A DNA stretch of 64,000 bases from the NCBI GenBank assembly GCA_965226555.1, contig CBDDDG010000014.1, forward strand, positions 160,001-224,000. Direction: 5' to 3'. Source of the DNA: Salinispira sp. GTDB lineage: Bacteria; Spirochaetota; Spirochaetia; DSM-27196; Salinispiraceae. Position 1 is the first letter of the stretch. Each line of letters begins with the position of its first letter. Below, piece after piece: positions 2,478 through 50,131 of the stretch. Below the pieces are notes generated by a model that did not search any database, was not told where the DNA came from, and was given only the letters and a program-made list of their open reading frames with translations. The position numbers were made by a program, and so were the translations under genes.

Positions 2478-3724
2478 ATGTTTATGAAAAAATTCCCACT
2501 TCCACGGCAGCGAAAACAATGGGATGAAACAAAAGTTTTGCCTCCGGCAAAACTTTCTACAAAATGCGAGAATGCTCAGCGCAGAAAAAGCATGCCAAAT
2601 TTGAAACTTTTGCTACTGGAAATTGTGCAAGCACAATTTTCCAATGCAAAAGTTTCAGAACACATAAATTTCTGTTTGCCGATGCGGAGTCCATACATCA
2701 ACTGCTGCAATTTATTAATGATGACTGGATACGGTATGTTCGCCCTGAGAACATTACCCTTATGAGCAACGAGTTCATCGAGAGAGTGCTCGGCAGAGAG
2801 CAGTCGAAGAATTTCAGGCGTAAAATATCGGACATTGTTGCGAAAGTTTCCTTCTGCTGCGGGAAAGAGAAGGAAGAGAAAATGGTGTATATTATTCTGG
2901 AGCATCAGTCATCTGTGGACTATGCCATGAGTGATCGCCTATTCGAATATACTAATATGCTCAAGCGACATATTCGAAATTCGAAAATGCGCCGACATCA
3001 TTGGGTATATCCCATTGTTCTGTACACAGGAGCGGGTAAATGGCCGGAAATAACTACCGAAGATGAGAACATCCCGAGTATATATCGCCAAATTTTCGAA
3101 TATCCTGTTATCGATGTGAGAGCGCTTGAGGAGGATAAAATACTCAATTCCAGCGGTCGCGTGGCTGCCTATTTTTATCTTTCGCGCTACGGAAAAAATT
3201 TGAATGATGATAATCGCGCTGAGTTCAAGAAACATCTTTTGAACATTCTCCAGCATGACGCGGGGAATAAGGCGAAGGAGTCCTTGCTCATTATGAGCGA
3301 TCTACTTTATAATACTCATGTATCAAAAGTCAATGTTAACAATCATACTATGGAGGAGGTAGTTAATATGATTACAAAAGAAGGGATAGAAATAGTACAC
3401 CCATGGCAATTGGACGTGTACAATGATCTTCAAGCCAAAGTCCACGCTGAGGTACAAGCCGAGATCAGGCAGAAACTGCAGGAAGGACTTCAGAAAGGAC
3501 TTCAGAAAGGACTTCAGGAAGGACTTCAGGAAGGTCGTCAGGAAGGACTTCAGGAAGGTCGTCAAGAAGGCGAAATGAAGGGGCATATGGAAGAGCGGAG
3601 AAAAAACGCCCGCAGTATGTTTTCCATAGGACTTTCAGCAGATGACGTTCAGAAGGTTACCGGGCTGAGCGATGAGGAAATGCGGACATTGCAGAATGGA
3701 GCGGGGAAGAACGGATCGCTCTAA
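2478..3724 (+). pseudogene. Rpn family PD-(D/E)XK nuclease, frameshifted by a 131-bp palindromic insertion
   Basis: SDIV..ILEHQS..YPIVLYTG motifs and a GLQE/GRQE tail. Insertion at 2532-2662 relative to the paralogue at 4688. Confidence 0.85.
3368..3724 (+). CDS. Putative intragenic RpnS antitoxin
   Basis: In-frame GGAGGAGG (3352-3359) followed by ATG at 3368. Confidence 0.6.
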   Translation: MITKEGIEIVHPWQLDVYNDLQAKVHAEVQAEIRQKLQEGLQKGLQKGLQEGLQEGRQEGLQEGRQEGEMKGHMEERRKNARSMFSIGLSADDVQKVTGLSDEEMRTLQNGAGKNGSL

Positions 3725-7618: not shown

Positions 7619-10600
7619 ATGAATATCAAATTATGTAAGGGAAGCCTTGTCATATTCTGTACAATTTTCATTGCAGTGCTTGCCGGATGTCCAATACCGG
7701 TAGTAGATGATATCACCCCCCCCCCCGACCGAACCGGGTGAAATAATTGTTCTAACCCTTGAAACGGGGAATGGGCAAATCAGTGCTACATGGGTTGCGC
7801 CGGAAGATAACGGCGGTAGCGAAGTTACCGGGTATCACCTTCGCCATAGCGCGGACGGCGGTACCAACTGGGCAAGATATATTAATGTCGCCGCGCCAAC
7901 CACAAACCACACCATTACAGAACTAACAAACGGCGCCGAGTACATAATACAGGTACGTGCCGTGAACGCGCAGGGCAATGGCGCATGGTCAGGAAGCGCC
8001 GCCGCAACCCCCGTTGCCGTTCCCATGGCGCCGACTGCGTTTATGCTTGAAGCGGAAAATATGCAAATTACCGCGACATGGGCTGCGCCGGACGATGACG
8101 GCGGCAGCGAAATTACCGGGTATAAGTTACAATATCGCGAAGTTACCGACCCGGAAGGAAGCTGGCTGGATGTAACTACCGATTCTCCTATTACTACTAC
8201 AAGCCACACCATCACAGAACTAACAAACGGCACCGAGTACGAAGTACAGGTGCGCGCTGTGAACGCGCAGGGCAACGGTAACCCATCGGAAATTCTCACA
8301 GCAATTCCGGTTACCATACCTTCCGCGCCGGATGCTCCAACACTCACCCACGGAAACACCAAGCTTACCGCGACATGGGCTGCGCCGGACGACGACGGCG
8401 GCAGCGAAATTATTCGGTATGAACTGCAATATCGCGAAGTTACCGACCCGGAAGGAATTTGGCTGAATGTAACTACCGATTCCGAAATTACTACTACAAG
8501 CCACACCATAACTGAACTGACAAACGGCACCGAGTACGAAGTACAGGTGCGCGCTGTGAACGCGCAGGGCAATAGCGAATGGTCTGGGAGCGCCACTGAA
8601 ACCCCCGACATTACTCCCAACGCCCCGGCAGTGCCAACACTCACCGTTGGAAACACCCAACTCACCGCGACATGGAGTGCTCCGACCGACACTGGAGGCA
8701 GCGCCATTACTCGCTATGAGTTGCAGTATCGCAAAGGAAGCAGTGGAGCATGGACGCTTATTAGCTCCGGCATCGGCACACGCACAAACCATACCATTAC
8801 CGGTCTGACAAACGGCGACAGCTACGAAGTGCAGGTACGTGCCGTGAACGCGCAGGGCACTAGCCCGTGGTCGTCCTCTGCCTCCGCAACCCCCGCAACC
8901 GTTCCTGTTGCACCCGCCGATCCTACGCTCACAGAAGGAAACGCTCAGCTCAGCGCGGCATGGAGCGCGCCGAACAACGGCGGCAGCGCCATTACCCGGT
9001 ATGAGTTGCAGTATCGCAAAGGAAGCAGTGGAGCATGGACGCTTATTAGCTCCGGCATCGGCACACGCACAAACCATACCATTACCGGACTGACAAACGG
9101 CGACAGCTACGAAGTACGGGTGCGCGCCGTGAACACTCGAGGCGATGGCGCATGGTCGGGGAGCAGCATCGCAACCCCAGTTGCCGTTCCCAACACTCCG
9201 ACAGCTCTCACGCTTACCGTTGGAAACACCCAGCTTGGCGTAGCATGGAGCGCTCCGACCGACACTGGAGGCAGCCCCATTACTCGCTATAAGTTGCAGT
9301 ATCGCAAAGGAAGCAGTGGAGCATGGACGCCTATTACCTCCGACATCGGCAGCACACGCACAAACCATACCATTGCCGGCCTGACAAACGGCGACAGCTA
9401 CGAAGTGCAGGTACGTGCCGAGAACGCGCAGGGCACTAGCCCGTGGTCGTCCTCTGCCTCCGCAACCCCCGCAACCGTTCCTGTTGCACCCGCCGATCCT
9501 ACGCTTACCGTTGGAAACACCCAGCTCAGCGCGGCATGGAGCGCGCCGAACAACGGCGGCAGCGCCATTACCCGGTATGAGTTGCAGTATCGCAAAGGAA
9601 GCAGTGGAGCATGGACGCTTATTAGCTCCGGCATTGGCACAAGCCACACCATTACCGGACTGACAAACGGCGACAGCTACGAAGTACGGGTGCGCGCCGT
9701 GAACGCGCAGGGCGATGGCGCATGGTCGGGGAGCAGCACCGCAACCCCCGACATTGCTCCCAACGCGCCGACAGCTCCCACGCTCACAGCCGGAAACACC
9801 CATATCACAGCGACATGGAGCGCGCCGACCGACAATGGTGGAAGCGCCATTACTCGGTACGAGTTGCAATATCGTACAGGCGGCGGAGCATGGACGTTTA
9901 TCACCTCCGGCATTGGCACAAATACAAGCCATACCATTACCGGACTGACAAACGGCGACAGCTACGAAGTACGGGTGCGCGCCGTGAACGCGCAGGGCAA
10001 TAGCCCGTGGTCATCCTCTGCCGCCGCAACCCCAGCTACCGTTCCCGATGCGCCAACTGCTCTGGCATTTCAGGATGGGGACGAGTTCATTAATTTGACA
10101 GCGACTGCGCGCGGTTCCAATGGCGGTAGCGTCATTACCGGGTTTGAGTTGCAATATCGAGATACTGATAATGACGAATGGATTCTTGTTACTGATATTT
10201 CAGCCCAAACATCGAGTTCCGGCAATATCTATGGATATTATAGAATTACCGGACTCACGAACGGCAGGAGCTACTCTGTACGGGCGCGCGTCGTGAATGC
10301 GGTGGGCAAGAGCGGATGGTCTCATTCGATCACGGCAAACCCCCTCGGCCCTCCCGGGGCTCCAGAAAATGTAATGCTTGCTGTGGGAGATGGTCAGCTT
10401 GCCGTGTCATGGAGCGCGCCGACCGATACTGGCGGCATCGACATTACCAAATACTATTTGCGATATAAGAAAAATGGCGCTTTGAGTTGGACATATGATA
10501 GTGATGACATCGGCGCAAGCACAAGCCACACCATTACCGGACTGACAAACGGCGACACCTATTCTGTACAGGTGCAGGCTGTGAACTCCAACAGTCCGGT

Positions 10601-12245
10601 TCCGGGTCCATGGTCAGAAATTGCCTCAGCAAGTCCCGCTACCGTCCCAGACGCGCCCACCGATCTAACGCTTACAGAGGGGAACACTCGGTTCAGCGTG
10701 GCATGGAGCGCTCCGACCGACAATGGTGGAAGCGCCATTACTCGGTACGAGTTGCAATATCGTACAGGCGGCGGAGCATGGACGCTTATCACCTCCGGCA
10801 TTGGCACAAATACAAGCCACATTATTATGGGTCTGACAAACGGCAACACCTACGAAGTACAGGTGCGTGCCGTGAACGCGCAGGGCGATGGTGCATGGTC
10901 GGCATCCACAACAGCAATGCTGACAGTGCCGGTTTTTGCGAAACAGGTTCCCGCTGGGACGGCAGTGTCCGCAATTCTTTCGGCTGATATTGATACCCTT
11001 ATTGCCAATCAGAATCCAACCGTTTCTTTGACCACGGTAGAACAGGGCACTCTTGCGGTTAGTGGATCGGACATTACAGTCACCCCCGCAACTACTCCCA
11101 ATGGGATCACCATTCCGACAGTTAATGCGAGTGGAATTATTACGGTTACTGCAAGTACAACGGCTGGAACATATGTGGTATATGGTGAAACAGAAACAAA
11201 CGACATACTGTTTGCCGAATATTTCTCTGTTATCGTGAGTCCTGCTGATGGCGATGGCAGCGCGGGCGTTGCTAATACCGATGGCGGTAACGATGAACTG
11301 AAAACAGCGGTAAATACAGGGATATCAACCTGGGGACAAACTGCTAATCTCAACTACATTATTACCACAGCAGTAACGGATATGTCCGAGGTGTTTAAGG
11401 ATGCAAGCGCATTTAACGGCGATATCTCCGACTGGGATACTAGTGCGGTAACGACTATATATGGAATATTTGAGGATGCAAGATCATTCAATGGCGATAT
11501 CTCCGACTGGAATGTCAGTACTGTAACGTCTATGGACAGTATGTTCGATAACGCAAGATCATTCAATGGTGATATCTCCGCCTGGGATGTCAGTTCAGTT
11601 ACGAGTATGAACTCTATGTTCAATCAAGCACGCAAATTCAATGGCGATATCTCCGACTGGAATGTCAGTTCAGTTACGAGTATGAGCTCTATGTTCGATA
11701 ACGCAAGATTATTTAATGGTGATATCTCCGCCTGGAATGTCAGTTCAGTTACGAGTATGAGCTCTATGTTCAATCAAGCACGCAAATTCAATGGCGATAT
11801 CTCCGCCTGGGATGTCAGTTCGGTAAAGTGGATTGATTATATGTTCAGTTACGCAAGTGTATTCAATGCCGATATCTCCAACTGGGATATCAGTAGTGTA
11901 TTCTGGATGCCCAGTATGTTCAGTTACGCAAGCGCATTCAATGCCGATATTTCCGGTTGGGATGTCAGTTCGGTAACGAGTATGAGCTCTATGTTCAGGA
12001 ACGCAAGTGTATTTAATGCCGATATCTCCGACTGGGATGTCAGCTCGGTAGAACAGATGAGCTCTATGTTCAATAGCGCAACTGCCTTCAGCCGTAATAT
12101 TGAGGAGTGGAAGGATCATTGGACACTCAGCGGTGGCAAATATACCGGAACGACAACCCAGATGTTTGTGGATTCCGGTTTGGATGCGAATCCAGTTCTT
12201 TATGATGATAGTGGGAATCAACCGAATTATCCATCATGGTATTAG
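7619..12245 (+). CDS. Large lipoprotein with 11 FN3 domains and 9 DUF285 repeats; out of frame at a C11 tract
   Basis: RBS GAGGAG, ATG 7619 and signal/lipobox ...LAGC are in a different frame from ORF 7707-12245. C tract at 7716-7726. Confidence 0.85.
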
Positions 12246-12371: not shown

Positions 12372-13366
12372 AGCCCGTGTGAGGGTTTTAACCGCATAAA
12401 TGTCTAAATTCTAACCATGAATTGCAATGCTTTTTACACAAATACACTGCCATAGTGTGAGCGAGGAGTTTTCTCCATAATCGGGATGTGAAATGCCATA
12501 TATCCCGCGCCCGTATTTTTTGAATATGAAATCGTTCTGATAACTGGCTGATAACCGTTTCAATTATTCTTCGGGTATTCATCATCCAGCTCATCTGCTC
12601 AGGGCTGTGTATCTGTTTCATATTTTTTCTCACGGGTGTTTCAAGTGCGATATTGTGTTCCGCAAAGAACGGCGCTTTGCCAATGTATCCCTTATCGCCT
12701 AAAAGTATTCCCTGCATACTGTTACAGAAATCTTCCGCCGCTTCTCTCTCATCGACATTCGCAGGGGTAAGAGTATAGTCGATAATCAGCCCATCGGCGG
12801 TTATCAGAATATGTCCCTTAAACCCATAATAATGCATGTTTTTTGCCGCGCAAAATCCATACGATGCCTGACCTTTGAATAGTCTGCAACGATTCGCTCT
12901 GCGGAAATTACACAGGGGCAGAGGAAATCCGTCAACGCAATAGACCGGAGCACTCTGTGAGATCAATGTTTGCGTGATGTATTTGTGAAGTTCCTGTTTA
13001 ATCCCCCAGAGATGCGCTGATTGACGGACATAGGCCGTCCGATGTCCAATATGTGGAAAGAGAGTTCTCCAATGCTCGACAAAATACCGATGAATACCTT
13101 TGTCGGTATCAATACCGAAAAACTCACCAACAATTCCCATGGTTAACACCTCATCATCGCCAAGTTTTGGTTTCGGCCCGCGTGATCGCAACCGTTCCAT
13201 ACTATTTTTATTCATTTTCATCCAATCACTTATCATACAGAATATTTCTATGATAAAATCCTCTCTGAGCACCTTTCCCTCCCGTTTGGTGTAAGGTTTT
13301 TTTAATACTTTACGGGAAGGGGTGCTCTTTTTTCAAGCCACTACACAAAAAACCCTCACACGGGCT
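12372..13366 (-). mobile_element. IS982-family IS, copy 2 (transposase 12388-13272)
   Basis: Same TIRs as copy 1, TSD TATATT. Confidence 0.93.
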
Positions 13367-13435
13367 TATATTGTAAAGAAATTCTGAGCCTGTTGCCGTG
13401 CAGCAATCTCTCATAAAAACATATGGAGGAAATTT

Positions 13436-14929
13436 ATGTGTAAGAAGATATTGATAATATTATTGTTGACTATTCTCATATTAAGTGGGTGTATGAAGCA
13501 GCTTGGTCTTGGTGGTGAATGCACTGTTGATTCTGACTGCGCCAGTAATATTTGTGGATATACTAATGATGGGACGCTGAATCGAGTGTGTTTAAGCGGG
13601 GCTCCGGGTAGCTATTGTTCAAGTGATTCCAGTTGCGCCGATGGAATAGAATGTAGAGGTCAAGTATGCGGAGGGAGATCAGAAGGGAGCGTATGCTCTG
13701 AAAATGATCAATGTACATCAGGATTACATTGTTATAATTCCGCCTGCAGAGCCGATCAACCAACCGGTGGCGTATGTTCTGACAATAGCCAATGCGCTTC
13801 CGGCCTGCATTGTTACAACAATGCCTGTAGAGCCAATCAACCAGCCGGTGGGCTGTGTTCTGATGATTCCAATTGCGCCGATGGAAGAGAATGTATAGCT
13901 GAGGCATGCGGAGGGAGATCAGAAGGGAGCGTATGCTCTGAAAATGATCAATGTACATCAGGATTACATTGTTATAATGCTACCTGCAGAACCGTTCAAC
14001 CAGTCGGTGGTGTGTGTTCCGACAATAACCACTGCGCTTCTGGCCTGCATTGTTACAACAATGCCTGTAGAGCCAATCAACCAGCCGGTGGAGTGTGTTC
14101 TAACGATTCCAATTGCGCCGATGGAAGAGAATGTATAGCTAATGCATGTGGAGGGAGATTAGAAGGGAGCGTATGCTCTGAAAATGATCAATGTACATCA
14201 GGATTACATTGTTATAATGCTGCCTGCAGAACCGCTCAACCAACCGGTGGGGTGTGTTCCGACAATAGCCACTGCGCTTCCGGCCTGCATTGTTACAACA
14301 ATGCCTGTAGAGCCAATCAACCAGCCGGTGGGCTGTGTTCTAACGATTCCAATTGCGCCGATGGAAGAAAATGTATAGCTGATGCATGCGGAGGGAGATT
14401 AGAAGGGAGCGCGTGCTCTGAAAATGATCAATGTACATCAGGATTACATTGTTATAATGCTGCCTGCAGAACCGCTCAACCAACCGGTGGGCTGTGTTCC
14501 GACAATAACCACTGCGCTTCCGGCCTGCATTGTTATAATGCTGCCTGCAGAACCGATCAAGCAGCTGGCGGAGCATGTTCCGACAATAGCCACTGCGCTT
14601 CCGGCCTGCATTGTTACAACAATACCTGCAGAACCGATCAATCAGTCGGTGGGGCGTGTTCTGACAATAACCATTGTGTTGGGGAGCTCCTCTGTTATGA
14701 GGGCGCATGTCGGGATGGATATCCAAATGGACACAGATGCGCAAGTAACAGTGAATGCGAAAGTGATTTCTGCGATAATCATGATTTTAGAGCTCTTGCT
14801 AGTTCGAAAACCAATACTTGTAAGGATCGAAGCGGTTCTGGAGCGTCCTGCTATTCAAACGATATGTGTCAAAACGGCAATTGCTACTGCCCTTTTATTT
14901 GCATTACTGAAGGCTGGAAATGCAATTAA
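13436..14929 (+). CDS. Cys-rich repeat lipoprotein 1
   Basis: RBS GGAGG, lipobox LSGC, 26-27-aa C-x5-C-x5-C-x4-C modules arranged in 80-aa super-repeats. Confidence 0.85.
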   Translation: MCKKILIILLLTILILSGCMKQLGLGGECTVDSDCASNICGYTNDGTLNRVCLSGAPGSYCSSDSSCADGIECRGQVCGGRSEGSVCSENDQCTSGLHCYNSACRADQPTGGVCSDNSQCASGLHCYNNACRANQPAGGLCSDDSNCADGRECIAEACGGRSEGSVCSENDQCTSGLHCYNATCRTVQPVGGVCSDNNHCASGLHCYNNACRANQPAGGVCSNDSNCADGRECIANACGGRLEGSVCSENDQCTSGLHCYNAACRTAQPTGGVCSDNSHCASGLHCYNNACRANQPAGGLCSNDSNCADGRKCIADACGGRLEGSACSENDQCTSGLHCYNAACRTAQPTGGLCSDNNHCASGLHCYNAACRTDQAAGGACSDNSHCASGLHCYNNTCRTDQSVGGACSDNNHCVGELLCYEGACRDGYPNGHRCASNSECESDFCDNHDFRALASSKTNTCKDRSGSGASCYSNDMCQNGNCYCPFICITEGWKCN

Positions 14930-15057
14930 CTGTTTTGAAATTTTACAGAATACAAAAATTTCTATAAAATAAGAAAATGCTAAGTATAAAGAAAGCATTC
15001 CAAATCTGAGACTGTTGCAGCGCAACAATCTCTCATAAAAACGAATGGAGGAAATTC

Positions 15058-16311
15058 ATGTGTAAGAAGGTATTGATAATATTACTGTTGACTATTCTCA
15101 TATTAAGTGGGTGTATGAAGCAGCTTGGTCTTGGTGATGAATGCACTGTTGATTCTGACTGTGCCAGTAATATTTGTGGATATACTAATGATGGGACGCT
15201 GAATCGAGTGTGTTTAAGCGGGGCTCCGGGCAGCTATTGTTCAAGTGATTCCAGTTGCGCCGATGGAATAGAATGTAGAGGTCAAGTATGCGGAGGGAGA
15301 TCAGAAGGGAGCGCATGCTCTGAAAATGATCAATGTACATCAGGATTACATTGTTATAATGCCGCCTGCAGAACCGTTCAACCAGCCGGTGGGCTGTGTT
15401 CCGACAATAGCCAATGCGCTTCCGGCCTGCATTGTTACAACAATGCCTGTAGAGCCAATCAACCAGCCGGTGGGCTGTGTTCTGATGATTCCAATTGCGC
15501 CGATGGAAGAGAATGTAGAGGTCAGGTATGCGGAGGGAGATCAGAAGGGAGCGCGTGCTCTGAAAATGATCAATGTACATCAGGATTACATTGTTATAAT
15601 GCTGCCTGCAGAGCCGCTCAACCAACCGGTGGCGTATGTTCTGACAATAGCCACTGTGCTTCCGGCCTGCATTGTTACAATGCTGCCTGTAGAGCCAATC
15701 AACCAGCCGGTGGGCTGTGTTCTAACGATTCCAATTGCGCCGATGGAAGAGAATGTATAGCTGATGCATGTGGCGGGAGATTAGAAGGAAGCGTATGCTC
15801 TGTAAATGATCAATGTACATCAGGATTACATTGTTATAATGCTGCCTGCAGAACCGATCAACCAACCGGTGGCGTATGTTCTGACAATAGCCACTGCGCT
15901 TCCGGCCTGCATTGTTACAATGCTGCCTGTAGAGTTACTCAAGCAGCTGGCGGAGCATGTTCCGACAATAGCCACTGCGCTTCCGGCCTGCATTGTTACA
16001 ACAATACCTGCAGAACCGATCAATCAGTCGGCGGGGCGTGTTCTGACAATAGCCATTGTCTTGGGGAGCTCGTCTGTTATGAGGGCGCATGTCGGGACGG
16101 ATATCCAAATGGACACAGTTGCACGCGTAACAATGAATGCGAAAGTGATTTCTGCGATAATTCGGATTTTATAGCTTTTGCTAGTCCGTATACCAATAGA
16201 TGTCAGGAGCGAAAAGGTTATAGACAGGCCTGCCATTCAAACGATATGTGTCAAAGCGGCAATTGCGACTGCTTCTCTATTTGCATTACTGAAGGCTGGA
16301 AATGCAATTAA
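15058..16311 (+). CDS. Cys-rich repeat lipoprotein 2 (tandem paralogue)
   Basis: Same architecture, exactly 80 aa shorter; downstream spacer duplicated (14930-15030 vs 16312-16412). Confidence 0.85.
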   Translation: MCKKVLIILLLTILILSGCMKQLGLGDECTVDSDCASNICGYTNDGTLNRVCLSGAPGSYCSSDSSCADGIECRGQVCGGRSEGSACSENDQCTSGLHCYNAACRTVQPAGGLCSDNSQCASGLHCYNNACRANQPAGGLCSDDSNCADGRECRGQVCGGRSEGSACSENDQCTSGLHCYNAACRAAQPTGGVCSDNSHCASGLHCYNAACRANQPAGGLCSNDSNCADGRECIADACGGRLEGSVCSVNDQCTSGLHCYNAACRTDQPTGGVCSDNSHCASGLHCYNAACRVTQAAGGACSDNSHCASGLHCYNNTCRTDQSVGGACSDNSHCLGELVCYEGACRDGYPNGHSCTRNNECESDFCDNSDFIAFASPYTNRCQERKGYRQACHSNDMCQSGNCDCFSICITEGWKCN

Positions 16312-16443
16312 CTGTTTTGAAATTTTACAGAATACAAAAATTTCTATAAAATAAGAAAATGCTAAGCATAAAGAAAGCATTCCAAATCTAAGACTGTTGC
16401 AGCGCAGCAATCTTAGTAATACAATAATGAGAGGATTCTTAAC

Positions 16444-17289
16444 ATGAATACATCAAAAAAAAGCCCCGGGAAAGCAATCCCTGCGGGCATTATTATTCTA
16501 CTTTGTCTGAGTGCTGCAGTACTTGCTATTAATCTGATATTTTCCGTGTCAACGAATGTCAGAGTTAACAGGCTGCATCAATTTTACAATGCCTTTTCGG
16601 CCGATTACCGATCGCTGGGCGGCAGTGGCGGCGGCAGTGGCGGCGGCAGCGGGAATCAGGCGGTTCCGGGAGTCGGAGAACCGACCCCCGACAGTGCGGG
16701 CGGCTCCGAGGCCATTACCTGCGCGAATGGCGATATTGACATTGCCTCCGATCCGTCAGTTGGCAGCCCCGATGCGCCGGTCGTTATTGTGGAGTATTCC
16801 GATTTCGAGTGTCCGTTCTGCGCGCGTTTTGTGACCGGAGTGTATCCGCAGATAAAGAGCGCCTACATCGATTCAGGTCAGGCGCGGCTCATTTTCAAGG
16901 ATTTCCCGCTTGATCGCTCTCACCCTCTTGCCATACCGGCCGCGGTGGCGGCAAACTGTGTTGCGCGGGAGCTGGGAGATGAGGCTTTCTTCGCCTACCA
17001 CGACCGGCTGTTCTTTCAGCAGACTGCGTTGTCGGAACAGAACATTATGGACTGGGCAAAGGAAGCGGGGCTGTCAGACGCGCAGATTAAGGCCTGTACT
17101 GCCGATTCATCTATGGTCGATGAGATTCTTGCCGACCGAAGCGAGGGAAGTAGTCTCGGTATTTCGGGCACGCCCAGCTTTGTCATTAACGGAGAAATTG
17201 TTGTCGGCGCTCAGCCATTTTCTGTTTTTAAGCAGAGCATCGACAGGGCGCTGGAACGGGCGGAAGCCGGTCTCAGTTGCGGGGAGTAA
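16444..17289 (+). CDS. dsbA: DsbA-family thiol-disulfide oxidoreductase, membrane-anchored
   Basis: EYSDFECPFC, KDFPL and GTPSF motifs; N-terminal TM segment and Gly/Ser linker. Confidence 0.88.
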   Translation: MNTSKKSPGKAIPAGIIILLCLSAAVLAINLIFSVSTNVRVNRLHQFYNAFSADYRSLGGSGGGSGGGSGNQAVPGVGEPTPDSAGGSEAITCANGDIDIASDPSVGSPDAPVVIVEYSDFECPFCARFVTGVYPQIKSAYIDSGQARLIFKDFPLDRSHPLAIPAAVAANCVARELGDEAFFAYHDRLFFQQTALSEQNIMDWAKEAGLSDAQIKACTADSSMVDEILADRSEGSSLGISGTPSFVINGEIVVGAQPFSVFKQSIDRALERAEAGLSCGE

Positions 17290-17426: not shown

Positions 17427-18464
17427 ATGCAAATGAAAAAGTTTCTGGCTTTTATCTTCATTGCTTTAATCGCAAGCACGTCTGTGTTTGCCGAAGAATC
17501 AAAACTCATTGATTTTAATACAATCAACGGAGCCAACACTGAAATTGATATTTCTTCCGATACGCAAAGCGCTCAGCTTATCGCATCGTTAAATATTGAT
17601 GACTGGCGGATTAAATTGAATTCATCCGCGAACAGCGTGATCAATCAATCGGTTTCGACCGTCAAAACATCTACTGTTGATGGCGGTATGTTCGCAGGTG
17701 CATCGGTTCTTGGCGCCCGTATACATTTTCCGGTTGCGCCCGTCAATTCATGGGGGTTGATAAAGCCTCCATTTGAAATTCCGGCCTACTATGGAGCTGA
17801 CGGTTCACAATTTATGAACAATGGTGTCGTAATGAATGTGGGAACCATTAAGGAAATTCGAACCTATGTCTATGGGCTCAACTATCCGCATAGTATTAGT
17901 GTCATCCTTGAGGATCACACAAACAAGGAAAAGGAGTATTTTCTTGGCAGTCTTGAGTTTGATGGCTGGCGTCAACTCACATGGCAAAATCCTGCCTACA
18001 TTGAAGACGTAAGGAATCGGGAACTTTCGAAAACTCCGCTGTATCCGCATCTCGCCCCCTATGCCAAACTCATAGGGTTCAGGATATACCGCGATGGAAC
18101 CCATGTCGGAGGTGACTTCATTACCTATATTAAGGATGTTGACATTATCTACGATCAGGCACTTCTTGAAATTCAGCGGGATATTGATGACGAAACTATC
18201 TGGGGTATTATTGAAACCCGTGGAGATGTGCGGACTGCTGCCCAAAATTATCGGATCGGAGAGAGGTTACGTCTTGAATCTCAGGAAAGAGAAAAACAAG
18301 ATACTTCTCAACAGGATGCTGCTGTTCAACAGGATGCTGCTGTTCAACAGGATGCTGCTGTTCAACAAGATGCTGCTGTTCAACAAGATGCTGCTCAGCA
18401 GGATGCTCCTGTTCAACAAGATGCTGTTCAGCAGGATGCTGCTCAGCAAGATACTACTCAATAG
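17427..18464 (+). CDS. flaA: Flagellar filament outer layer (sheath) protein FlaA
   Basis: Signal peptide, LIDF, IKPPFEIPAY, NVGTIK, FDGWRQLTWQNPAY; C-terminal QQDAAV repeats. Confidence 0.92.
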   Translation: MQMKKFLAFIFIALIASTSVFAEESKLIDFNTINGANTEIDISSDTQSAQLIASLNIDDWRIKLNSSANSVINQSVSTVKTSTVDGGMFAGASVLGARIHFPVAPVNSWGLIKPPFEIPAYYGADGSQFMNNGVVMNVGTIKEIRTYVYGLNYPHSISVILEDHTNKEKEYFLGSLEFDGWRQLTWQNPAYIEDVRNRELSKTPLYPHLAPYAKLIGFRIYRDGTHVGGDFITYIKDVDIIYDQALLEIQRDIDDETIWGIIETRGDVRTAAQNYRIGERLRLESQEREKQDTSQQDAAVQQDAAVQQDAAVQQDAAVQQDAAQQDAPVQQDAVQQDAAQQDTTQ

Positions 18465-21001: not shown

Positions 21002-21267
21002 AGGTACCCTCCTTGTAAAGGCATAGAGTTATATAATATATATTACAAAAAAAATGATAAAGTCAAGAAAAATATGAAAAATATGAAAAAAATATACAAT
21101 AAAAATATAAAGTTTCCCATTTATATAAAAAAATGCACCAGAAATTTACAAAAAAACCATGTAATTTCACGAAATGTCAATTTTTAGTAGAAGACCTGTG
21201 TGGTATATAATCGGAATAGATGATATATTTGCCTGAAATACAGGAGACCGAAATCAGGAGAATAGGC

Positions 21268-22761
21268 ATGAAAACGGTGTTGGTAATTGGAGGCGGTTTT
21301 ACGGGAATGGCTGTTGCCGCGCTTCTCCAGAATAAGGGAATGGATGTAAGTATTGCAGAGAAGAACAGCCAACTTGGCGGAAGGGCGCGGACCTGGTCCA
21401 GTAAGGGCTATACCTTCGATATGGGTCCCTCATGGTATCTCATGCCGGAGGTATTTGAAAAATTCTTCACGGGTTTGGGTAAAAAACGGGAAGATTATTA
21501 CACGCTGCGGAAACTTGATCCGCTTTACCGGGTGTTTTTTGAAGGAGAAAACACCGTCGACATTCATTCCGACATTGAGCAGACAGCAAAGCTTTTTGAG
21601 AGTTTTGAACGGGGAGGGCAGGAGCGCCTCAATGCCTATCTTGAAAATTGCAGGTATACATATCAGCTTGCATTAAACCGCTTTCTCTACTCCGAATACC
21701 GCAATATCTTTCAATTCTTTAATCCATCCACCGTTTTTCATGGTCTGCGTCTCGGAATTTTCAGGAGTCTGCATAAACATGTACAGAAATATTTTTCCGA
21801 TCACCGCGCGCAGAAAATCTTGGAATATGCCATGGTCTTTCTCGGTACCAGCCCAAATGCTGCTCCGTCATTTTACTCAATTATGAGTCATGTTGATCTT
21901 GTGCAGGGAGTCTATTTTCCTCAGGGTGGAATGGGCGCCATGGTCGCCGGTATGGAAAAACTTCTTTCGGAATTGAATGTTACTGTGAGAACTAATTGCG
22001 AGGTGCAGCATATACATGCGAATGGGAATAAGGTAGAGAGCGTTCAAACAAGCCAGGGCATTATGAAGCCCGATTATGTCATCGGTACGGGCGATTATCA
22101 TCATCTTGAGCAGGATTTACTTGAAAAACCCTATCGGAATTTATCGAAAAAATACTGGCAGAAAGCTGTTCTTGCCCCATCCATGTTCATTCTCTATCTG
22201 GGTGTCAGGAGGAAAATTCCGCAATTAGCGCATCATAATCTCTTCTTTGCTTCCGATTGGAACCGGCATTTTAATCAAATTTTTGAAAAACCACAGTGGC
22301 CGGACAATCCATCATATTATGTGAGCGCGGTAAGCCGTGATGATAGTACCATGGCTCCTCCGGGCAGGGAAAATATTTTCATTCTTGTTCCCATTGCTCC
22401 CGGGCTCGAATGCGCTGAAGAGCATAAACAGCGCTATGCCGAAAAAATGATTATTCATCTTGAGGCATTGACCGGCAAATCAATTCGAGATGAAATTGAG
22501 GTTCAGCGCATATATACTGCGCAGGATTTTCAGGATGATTATCATGCCTTCAGGGGTACAGCCCTTGGCCTCGCGCACACACTCGGCCAAACTGCCGTAT
22601 TTCGTCCGCCCATGCGGAACAGAAAGCTGGAAAATCTTTTCTATGCAGGGCAGTATACTCATCCCGGGGTCGGTGTTCCAATGACCTTCATCGCTGCGGA
22701 TATAGTCGCAGACATTCTGGCAAAAACTGCCGGAACTGCCGGAACTCCCGGAACTGCCTGA
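21268..22761 (+). CDS. crtI: Phytoene desaturase family protein
   Basis: GxGxxG, GGRA, FDMGPSWY, THPGVGVP; AGGAG before ATG 21268. Confidence 0.88.
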   Translation: MKTVLVIGGGFTGMAVAALLQNKGMDVSIAEKNSQLGGRARTWSSKGYTFDMGPSWYLMPEVFEKFFTGLGKKREDYYTLRKLDPLYRVFFEGENTVDIHSDIEQTAKLFESFERGGQERLNAYLENCRYTYQLALNRFLYSEYRNIFQFFNPSTVFHGLRLGIFRSLHKHVQKYFSDHRAQKILEYAMVFLGTSPNAAPSFYSIMSHVDLVQGVYFPQGGMGAMVAGMEKLLSELNVTVRTNCEVQHIHANGNKVESVQTSQGIMKPDYVIGTGDYHHLEQDLLEKPYRNLSKKYWQKAVLAPSMFILYLGVRRKIPQLAHHNLFFASDWNRHFNQIFEKPQWPDNPSYYVSAVSRDDSTMAPPGRENIFILVPIAPGLECAEEHKQRYAEKMIIHLEALTGKSIRDEIEVQRIYTAQDFQDDYHAFRGTALGLAHTLGQTAVFRPPMRNRKLENLFYAGQYTHPGVGVPMTFIAADIVADILAKTAGTAGTPGTA

Positions 22762-48916: not shown

Positions 48917-50131
48917 TCAATTCATATGGTGCGGTTTTTTTCGGGGACGCTCTCGGGTTGCCATATCGTAGGCATAAATTCTGTTACTTTTATCATCCGC
49001 CACCCACATGGTTGTTCCATTCGACCAGATGCCGACTGGATTATCGGGAAGACTGGCGAAATCAATTTTTGATGTATCCCGTTCTCCGCTATTCAACGTA
49101 TAGGCTGCAATTACTTCACGGTCAATATCCATCACCCACATTGTTACTCCATCCGACCAGATGCGCCAAGGATTATGCTCCGCGGTAAAACTTCCATCGG
49201 TGGCTGTCCCGTCATTTATATCATAGGCCTCAATGGGTAGTGTAGAAGTAACTTGTCCTACCCACATCGTTGTGCCATTCGACCAGATCGCCGTGAGAGC
49301 TAGGAATGTGCCGGATGCGGGGATGATTTTTGTAGCATCGTTTTCTTTGGTAATCATGTTATAGGCATAGATTATTCTATCGCCGGAATCTATTACCCAC
49401 ATTGTTGTTCCATTTGACCAGATGTCTCCGGGGTTACTATTCCCATCATCAGTAGCATCCATAGGATCTCCGGTATAAAGCGTGTTAAAATCTTTGGCCT
49501 CGTCGCGTTCCTTCGTAATCATGTTGTAGGCATAGATTTTTTTATCTACACTATCCGATACCCACATTGTTGTTCCATCCGACCAGATACCATAAGGTTC
49601 AGTATTCACGGCGGCAAGTATGAAATCGTCTCGGTGATCCCCTGCGGCAGTATATCCGTCTTTCGCATAACCATATCGGTCGTAGATCATGCCGGTTGCC
49701 CTGTTAATGCCCTCAGCATTAAAGCCGTTTTTGTCGTAGCCGTTTATGTCGTAACCAGCCGGGTTATATATCTCGCCCGTTTCGCGGTGCCGGGCTTCAG
49801 TGTCAAAGCCAGCCGCGTTAAAACCGTCTTTGTCATAGCCATTCGAGTCGTAGCCGTCTTTGTCATAGCCGTCTTCGTCATAACCGTTTCCTGCATAACC
49901 GTCTTTATCATAACCGTCTTTGTCGTAGCCGTTTCCTGCGTAGCCGTCTTTGTCGTAGCCATTCGAGTTGTAGCCGTCTTTGTCATAACCATTCGGGTCG
50001 TAGCGCGTGCCGGTCTCCTGATGAATGCCTGCGTCATTAAAGCCGTTTGCATCATACATTTCGCAGGCAACGAGAAGTACCCCCGCGATAAAAAGCCCTA
50101 TCCCTATGAGCGCATAGTGTCCTGATTTCAT
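48917..50131 (-). CDS. Lipoprotein with GYD-repeat stalk and IWS(D/N)GTTMWV propeller-like repeats
   Basis: Lipobox LVAC, (NG/DG)YDKDG repeats, five WS(D/N)G(T/V)TMWV repeats. Confidence 0.75.
   Translation of the reverse strand: MKSGHYALIGIGLFIAGVLLVACEMYDANGFNDAGIHQETGTRYDPNGYDKDGYNSNGYDKDGYAGNGYDKDGYDKDGYAGNGYDEDGYDKDGYDSNGYDKDGFNAAGFDTEARHRETGEIYNPAGYDINGYDKNGFNAEGINRATGMIYDRYGYAKDGYTAAGDHRDDFILAAVNTEPYGIWSDGTTMWVSDSVDKKIYAYNMITKERDEAKDFNTLYTGDPMDATDDGNSNPGDIWSNGTTMWVIDSGDRIIYAYNMITKENDATKIIPASGTFLALTAIWSNGTTMWVGQVTSTLPIEAYDINDGTATDGSFTAEHNPWRIWSDGVTMWVMDIDREVIAAYTLNSGERDTSKIDFASLPDNPVGIWSNGTTMWVADDKSNRIYAYDMATRERPRKKPHHMN

Follow-up and report, generated by a model that had tools for sequence, protein, structure and literature searches.

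The spirochaete surface proteins VlsE, Vmp and TprK undergo cassette-based antigenic variation. Diversity-generating retroelements (DGRs) depend on a reverse transcriptase and a template region; the mutations arise at adenines of the template, and the targets are C-type lectin folds, according to the parts of the source consulted (PMC4891356). In Myxococcus xanthus, TraA presents a polymorphic distal domain on a stalk of Cys-rich repeats; in the consulted parts of the two papers, the variable domain is N-terminal and PA14-like, the anchor is a C-terminal MYXO-CTERM and the partner is TraB (PMC3820747; PMC6372800). Here, these systems are compared with a locus of Salinispira sp. (Spirochaetota), which lies in a window of 64,000 nucleotides (assembly GCA_965226555.1, contig CBDDDG010000014.1, positions 160,001 to 224,000). 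The locus consists of two tandem genes, A and B, which encode predicted Cys-rich lipoproteins, are the sole such genes in the 2.98-Mb genome according to genome searches, and differ in their terminal domains, or tips, by many amino acid changes placed between fixed cysteines.

Like TraA, A and B carry their variable part at the distal end of a Cys-rich stalk; unlike TraA, they have a predicted N-terminal lipid anchor, and the variable part is the Cys module pair itself. With VlsE, Vmp and TprK they share a variable surface protein, a conserved framework and signs of gene conversion at the locus, but there are no silent donor cassettes for the tip, both genes are full-length and no variation was seen within the sample. 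TvpA of Treponema denticola, a DGR target, is likewise a spirochaete lipoprotein present in more than one copy and with variation limited to its 3′ end, as far as the consulted parts of the source go (PMC4891356), whereas here neither a reverse transcriptase, template, Avd or adenine bias nor a C-type lectin (FGE-sulfatase) domain was found. The two genes and their tips are the following:

13436..14929, plus strand: gene A, a 497-residue Cys-rich bead-chain lipoprotein with 72 Cys and 17 modules (open reading frame list, module parsing, Pfam)
15058..16311, plus strand: gene B, its 417-residue paralogue with 60 Cys and 14 modules (same evidence)
14729..14926, plus strand: tip of A, 66 residues with 10 Cys at a spacing of 5-4-15-9-5-4-1-3-6, holding all 22 variable residues
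16111..16308, plus strand: tip of B, with the scaffold of A and 31 nucleotides and 22 residues different

The original prediction, made from the bare sequence, that 22 of the 69 sense codons differ between 14720-14929 and 16102-16311 and that none of them differs only synonymously was borne out on recount: the tips have 31 nucleotide differences, 13, 10 and 8 of them at codon positions 1, 2 and 3, and seven codons carry multiple changes. All 10 cysteines and the remaining 47 codons are identical, as had also been claimed, and none of the 44 same-residue codons of the 66-residue tip carries a silent change. The compared stretch was not freely chosen, because it nearly coincides with the last two modules. 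The word “hypervariable” in that prediction was an overstatement, since there are two sequences only and no variation was seen within the population, but the tip differences themselves stood. Single-copy modules elsewhere in the genes differ at 2 of 96, 1 of 78, 0 of 81 and 5 of 81 nucleotides, compared with 31 of 198 in the tip. The N-terminal halves and spacers had been described as near-identical, which is correct for codons 1-101 (6 nucleotides differ between A and B) and for the 105 nucleotides 3′ of the stops (3 differ), but not for the array part of the stalk, a mosaic that is ~93% identical between A and B, nor for the upstream sequences, whose similarity is limited to 55 nucleotides (87%). 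Within the tip, the variable residues occupy 6 of the 15 positions of a long hairpin loop, 7 of the 9 of the inter-module linker and 3 of the 5 of the first inter-Cys stretch, with further ones around the extra Cys pair. The changes are radical on average, with a mean BLOSUM62 score of −0.73 versus −0.19 in the stalk.

The tips do not stem from misassembly. Each of them forms an unbroken 306-nucleotide contig with no other letters in runs X1 and X2, at depths (tip A/tip B) of 4.9/5.1 and 7.9/8.1, respectively, versus 5.2 and 8.7 for the single-copy flank; X3 covers tip A unchanged and holds no long piece of tip B. All three runs come from a single sample, from which the assembly itself may have been made, which means that they confirm the sequence but are not independent biology. 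The contigs, which drop rare variants and have a depth of 4-8 over the tips, do not span the stalk arrays in any of the three runs. Two records of X3, either of which may be an error, are a depth-2 one (16060-16083), in which codon 16060-16062 is in a third state, and a low-depth contig over the neighbouring dsbA gene (16558-17231) with 5 differences in 674 nucleotides. They give a hint of a second strain with an unchanged tip A.

In six neutral simulations, in which the 31 changes were placed at random with a transition bias of 1, 2 or 4 and with cysteines protected or not, the mean number of synonymous-only codons was 4.2-6.7, and the probability of none was 0.0006-0.011. The counting method gives the tip a nonsynonymous divergence (dN) of 0.189 and a synonymous divergence (dS) of 0.085, the latter arising wholly from path averaging in multi-hit codons, and four other stretches a dN of 0.013-0.052 and a dS of 0.045-0.146. 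In the pairwise codon model, other parts of the gene have a ratio of the two (omega) of 0.30-0.46. When tip and control are compared, omega is 3.4-3.5 versus 0.36-0.44, with likelihood ratio test (LRT) p values of 0.0008 against the stalk and 0.012 against the 110 non-array codons. With a shared synonymous clock, the tip omega is 3.6 (p 0.0016 versus 1) or 1.9 (p 0.03), according to which control sets the clock. The difference in omega between tip and stalk is firm; a tip omega above 1 is likely but borderline.

A control set was drawn from 2560 crude open reading frames of the genome, taking pairs of at least 60% identity and a gap-free 69-codon window with 24-38 differences. Six of the 2607 comparable paralogue pairs have a window lacking silent codons, among which the A/B pair ranks first; with tiled windows, the count is 2 of 2913. 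As the pairs are not independent and 2153 of them come from one Rpn-like family, the outcome is a rank and not a p value. The remaining five pairs fall within a group of 132 FN3-rich proteins (338 pairs), and four of the five involve the following FN3-stalk lipoproteins, each with one GH18 and one PA14 domain:

C1:304050-308090, first FN3-stalk GH18/PA14 lipoprotein
C15:333-4373, second
C10:269900-273898, third
C10:264706-268287, fourth

Their GH18 domains show an omega of 2.05-2.97 (p 0.0006-0.028) in five of six pairs, with changes clustered in short loops. The sixth pair is identical over 314 codons on different contigs, which suggests domain-level gene conversion, and three distinct comparisons remain. 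The GH18 result supports a general excess of amino acid change in distal domains.

The structure of the tip was predicted by AlphaFold2. With the window sequences only, the pLDDT of the tip stayed below 50; with 71 distant homologues added (71 of the best 150 listed of 729), the last five modules of B reached a mean pLDDT of 88.7, with a minimum of 61 in the long loop. The tip of this model (residues 79-149) aligns with colipase (VIA Z 5.8, rmsd 3.3, 61 residues aligned), Dkk1 (Z 4.8, rmsd 2.6, 57 aligned), Dkk4 (Z 4.7, rmsd 2.7, 58 aligned) and Draxin (Z 3.6, rmsd 3.6, 51 aligned), and single modules overlay squash-inhibitor knottins at 0.6-1.2 Å over 21-28 residues. The tip is a 10-Cys two-module unit, with a faint predicted resemblance to colipase and Dickkopf domains, which bind proteins. 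The predicted likeness, a two-module disulfide fold, extends to Draxin, prokineticin (Bv8/MIT1) and squash knottins. The tip differs from the colipase/Dickkopf domains in that the matches have a Z of 3.6-5.8 and 20-24% identity, in that the fifth disulfide would be placed otherwise, judging from the Cys spacing, and in being bacterial, predicted to be lipid-anchored and carried on a stalk of 12-15 modules. The idea of a fixed Cys scaffold with a diversifying surface, put forward in the original prediction, draws support from the omega contrast, the radical nature of the changes and their location in loops and linker of the predicted two-module disulfide domain; the tip would then serve as a binding surface.

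The remainder of the two genes and their immediate surroundings comprise the following features:

13425-13429, plus strand: ribosome site GGAGG of A, 6 nucleotides before the ATG (read from the sequence)
15047-15051, plus strand: ribosome site GGAGG of B, 6 nucleotides before the ATG (read from the sequence)
13436..13492, plus strand: predicted lipoprotein signal peptide of A, with basic N-region, hydrophobic core and lipobox to Cys19 (by inspection)
15058-15114, plus strand: predicted lipoprotein signal peptide of B, same as in A, lipobox Cys19 (by inspection)
13511..13606, plus strand: N-terminal module A1 with a long hairpin loop (B1 at 15133-15228, 2 nucleotide differences)
13607..14566, plus strand: stalk array of A, four copies of a 240-nucleotide super-repeat of three 4-Cys modules
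15229..15948, plus strand: stalk array of B, three copies of the 240-nucleotide super-repeat, module order shuffled relative to A
14567..14728, plus strand: sub-terminal module pair of A (counterpart in B at 15949-16110; 0 and 5 nucleotide differences per 81)
14927..15031, plus strand: spacer after A, containing a diverged copy of a genome-wide repeat; 97% identical to 16309-16413
16309..16413, plus strand: spacer after B, containing the same genome-wide repeat and ending in a recurring piece of roughly 30 nucleotides
16444..17289, plus strand: DsbA-like thioredoxin with a CPFC motif and an N-terminal hydrophobic anchor (Pfam Thioredoxin_4/DSBA), directly 3′ of B
12388..13272, minus strand: DDE transposase of an insertion sequence just upstream of A, three copies in the window (context only)

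Cys19 is what we take to be the lipobox cysteine under the usual lipobox rule, the leaders of A and B having been read by eye. The loop of the N-terminal module has 11 residues in both proteins. As the original prediction stated, the stalks in the assembly differ by exactly one 80-residue super-repeat (four versus three copies of the 240-nucleotide unit), which is composed of 26, 27 and 27 residues, and the array modules have a Cys spacing of 5-4/5-4. The array is shuffled, because the closest match of a module is often at another position or in the other gene (A12/B6, 1 nucleotide; A10/B4, 2 nucleotides). Judged by profile matches, A and B belong by their stalk to the DUF7107-type repeat proteins: DUF7107, EB and Dickkopf_N score 124.6, 65.1 and 62.6 bits on A and 101.1, 58.8 and 51.0 bits on B, with cut-offs of 24.3-25. 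Proteins with DUF7107 (PF23416), the EB module (PF01683) and Dickkopf_N (PF04706) are common in Myxococcota, and the stalk resembles them in scoring above cut-off with all three; the differences are the longer loops and extra Cys pair of the tip and the spirochaete that hosts it. The tips alone match no Pfam family, and an NCBIfam scan gave nothing over cut-off. Promoter-like sites occur at chance level (8 seen versus 7.1).

The piece of roughly 30 nucleotides recurs before A (about 13380-13410), between A and B (15002-15031) and after B, and these direct repeats are likely to mark the junctions of a tandem duplication. Both spacers also contain diverged copies (14934-15018 and 16316-16400) of a genome-wide hairpin repeat with ~140 hits. 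The adjoining DsbA-like protein is a possible candidate for a disulfide catalyst. A second DsbA-like paralogue, at C10:392979-393785, has no Cys-rich neighbour; the two are 77% identical to each other and 24-31% identical to relatives. One CcdA-like open reading frame is found in the genome, at C22:28387-29307. Further downstream in the window, a FlaA gene at 17427, with best matches of 43-48% identity, places the genome among Spirochaetales.

The explanation that we favour, and regard as probable, is that A and B are tandem lipoproteins, each made of a bead stalk and a terminal binding domain, whose terminal domains were driven apart by ordinary diversifying selection after duplication. The duplication would have occurred by unequal crossing-over, in keeping with the short direct repeat seen before, between and after the units, and slippage and gene conversion would reset the length and sequence of the stalks and leave them alike, in keeping with the shuffled modules and the difference of one 240-nucleotide unit. 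The last two modules are predicted to form a colipase/Dickkopf-like disulfide fold, with the changes lying between fixed cysteines, and the lipid-anchored bead chain would keep this small, disulfide-locked binding domain at a distance from the cell. Each copy would recognise an external protein, most probably one of an animal host, that differs between the copies or changes over time, and specificity-changing point mutations would be fixed singly; in venom knottins, point changes that alter specificity are fixed one by one. The adjacent DsbA-like protein might help to form the 29-35 disulfides.

Several results weigh against this explanation. Taken alone in the pairwise single-step codon model, the tip has an omega of 2.5-3.0 that is not significantly greater than 1 (p 0.08-0.14), and omega rises to 7-10 (p about 0.03) only if double and triple nucleotide changes are allowed. 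The shared-clock estimate varies with the control chosen for the clock, and conversion can bias it either way. Two sequences only are at hand, and the variable residues are weakly clustered along the chain (p 0.04-0.28 with three window sizes). The tip model is partly imposed by the distant repeats of stalk type that made up its alignment; all its Z values are below 8, which may reflect a common arrangement only, and the best Foldseek E value is 0.0066, with none at or below 0.001. A profile search matched neither DsbB nor VKOR anywhere in the genome. Finally, the FN3 stalks of the GH18 lipoproteins have an omega of 0.72-1.52, none of them different from 1.

Because the FN3 stalks lie near omega 1, surface genes of this genome are weakly constrained overall, and this keeps alive an account by relaxed selection and chance, according to which the tip drifts near-neutrally save for its cysteines, conversion keeps the rest alike, and having no silent changes falls in the tail of what chance produces. 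Such drift agrees with the tip-only LRT (p 0.08-0.14), with the small number of synonymous sites in the tip (about 41 only), with the omega near 1 of surface-protein stalks and with the windows lacking silent codons that also occur in five of the 338 FN3-rich pairs. It is nevertheless rather unlikely, given the neutral probabilities of 0.0006-0.011 and a tip whose divergence is at least about threefold that of every other single-copy module; 44 of the 66 residues, including all cysteines and the last 10 residues, are fixed, and therefore omega at the free sites has to lie above the mean. Selection could also have acted earlier, among alleles, if recombination brought in one of the tips from a more diverged allele present in another strain. 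The divergence does start abruptly at the tip (31 nucleotides) after modules with 0 and 5 differences, and the third state at codon 16060-16062 in the depth-2 record is a weak hint of another allele, but an imported tract should bring silent differences, which none of the 44 same-residue codons has, and no donor was found in the genome, 40 relatives or metagenome contigs; we consider an import improbable. Self-recognition receptors like TraA, whose tips would bind their like on sister cells and in which divergence would make new recognition types and not follow host ligands, are suggested by the variable distal domain on a Cys-rich repeat stalk described in the consulted parts of the TraA papers (PMC3820747; PMC6372800) and by the nearest Atlas clusters, which are Myxococcota proteins (scores of 0.90 or below, a lead only). 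A and B, however, lack TraA's MYXO-CTERM anchor and Myxo_Cys_RPT repeats, they have no TIGR04201 match at E ≤ 0.01 and no PA14-like domain in Pfam, they end in a Cys module, and their neighbours are a transposase and a DsbA-like gene, with nothing TraB-like; two specificities in one cell would also suit kin recognition poorly, which makes this role quite improbable. Least credible of all is a true constraint on the overlapping +1 frame, in which many of the changes are silent: of 24 codons that change in this frame, 11 are synonymous, and a 182-residue reading frame (14424-14972) is open in copy A, but copy B has a stop inside the tip, 18 of the 31 changes fall at non-third positions of that frame, and signal peptide, ribosome site and Pfam matches occur only in the main frame, which is also the only one of six checked that is open and conserved in both copies.

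DGR mutagenesis was raised in the original prediction together with a genome search for a template copy and for reverse transcriptase or Avd genes; the search found none of these and no third copy, and this part of the prediction fails. The tip as a DGR variable region, with template and reverse transcriptase elsewhere or lost, would match the C-terminal site and lipoprotein type of T. denticola DGR targets, as given in the consulted parts of the source (PMC4891356). Four variable codons fit an AAY template, and the genome is only 93.5% complete. Within it, there are no RVT_1 matches (PF00078; the control search with this profile gave matches in 3 of 14 genomes) and no matches to the Avd model NF033474, although not all DGRs carry Avd. 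In a blastn search of the genome with word size 7, the only matches over the coding tip were the two genes themselves, plus one 16-nucleotide and one 49-nucleotide chance match (E 0.7). Blastn and tblastn searches of both tips against the genome gave no further copy and no silent donor cassette, and a cassette system was rejected on the same result. A self-scan of the genome (309,066 alignments) gave 103 A- or T-biased windows, of which the top 25 all lie in long repeated genes and none is a short A-biased repeat pair. An adenine-template model on the 31 sites predicts 2.8 invariant A, whereas 55 are seen, 11 of them at free third positions; A occurs at 16 of the variable sites, C at 16, G at 13 and T at 17, which means that A is involved no more than the others, and seven AAY codons are unchanged. 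The tips are, moreover, unbroken single-copy contigs in X1 and X2. The variable domain, with its 66 residues and 10 Cys, matches no C-type lectin or Ig family of Pfam at E ≤ 0.1, and the fold match lists contain no C-type lectin entry, which excludes nothing. The adenine spectrum alone rejects the DGR model, though a missing reverse transcriptase is possible at 93.5% completeness, and a DGR origin is very improbable.

Protein B has no match in 40 related genomes, and DUF7107 none in seven genomes of the family. Of 58 pattern matches in metagenome contigs none was confirmed, a homologue search with the tip region gave no candidate, and one with the whole protein found 2 of 914 candidates (26-30% identity); the exact A and B sequences are absent from the protein collection searched. 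In all, 729 proteins match at E ≤ 0.001, the best 150 of which have 25-45% identity, and the best ESM Atlas scores are 0.90 for the tip and 0.75 for the whole protein, which are leads only. Searches of open-access literature text, supplements excluded, turned up no paper that names DUF7107 and none on diversifying selection acting on a Dickkopf- or knottin-fold domain of a bacterium.

The genome has 206 DUF285 matches, versus 0-2 in seven family relatives, and this number, together with many insertion sequences, suggests life on an animal host. Its large surface-protein repertoire comprises the 132-member FN3-linked group and the DUF285 proteins, with representatives in the window at 119-1696 and 7707-12245. 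In FN3-stalk FG-GAP proteins (C22:196034-198289, C26:5987-8248, C10:49279-51537 and C22:278841-281093), the propeller loops have runs of amino acid changes, the best windows holding 26 and 19 nonsynonymous versus 0 silent codons, gaps possibly included. About 222 open reading frames or fragments form one Rpn/YhgA-like (Transposase_31) group with 12-nucleotide tandem repeats near the C-terminus (in the window at 2564-3724), and a 15-nucleotide tandem repeat on the minus strand at 49700-50020 encodes a pentapeptide repeat of a family with 37 members in the genome. The open reading frame at 21220-22761 resembles a phytoene desaturase. Carotenoid pigments are reported for Salinispira relatives in the consulted parts of one paper, which also describes Salinispira-related sponge and coral symbionts; nothing links the present genome to them (PMC12478362).

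As it stands, with two sequences and borderline statistics, the finding is modest. Displaying polymorphic tips on repeat stalks is an established strategy, and the new part is the scaffold, a tiny disulfide-locked variable domain of a kind that animals use as venom peptides and Wnt inhibitors. A bolder version, which we regard as a long shot, is that a host-associated spirochaete shows a Dickkopf/colipase-fold miniprotein on a stalk of knottin beads, which binds an animal signalling receptor (a Wnt co-receptor or similar) and whose loops, locked in an arms race with the host, change as fast as venom peptides. In that case, A and B would provide a natural bacterial disulfide scaffold that tolerates change at a third of its positions and, together with the fast GH18 lipoproteins, would point to a genome-wide repertoire of stalked binders diversified without a retroelement. 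The analysis marks out two domains of 66 residues that could readily be produced and tested for a ligand, and it gives an initial hint of function for DUF7107, an unstudied family in which the beads would form the stalk and the long-loop terminal beads the working end.

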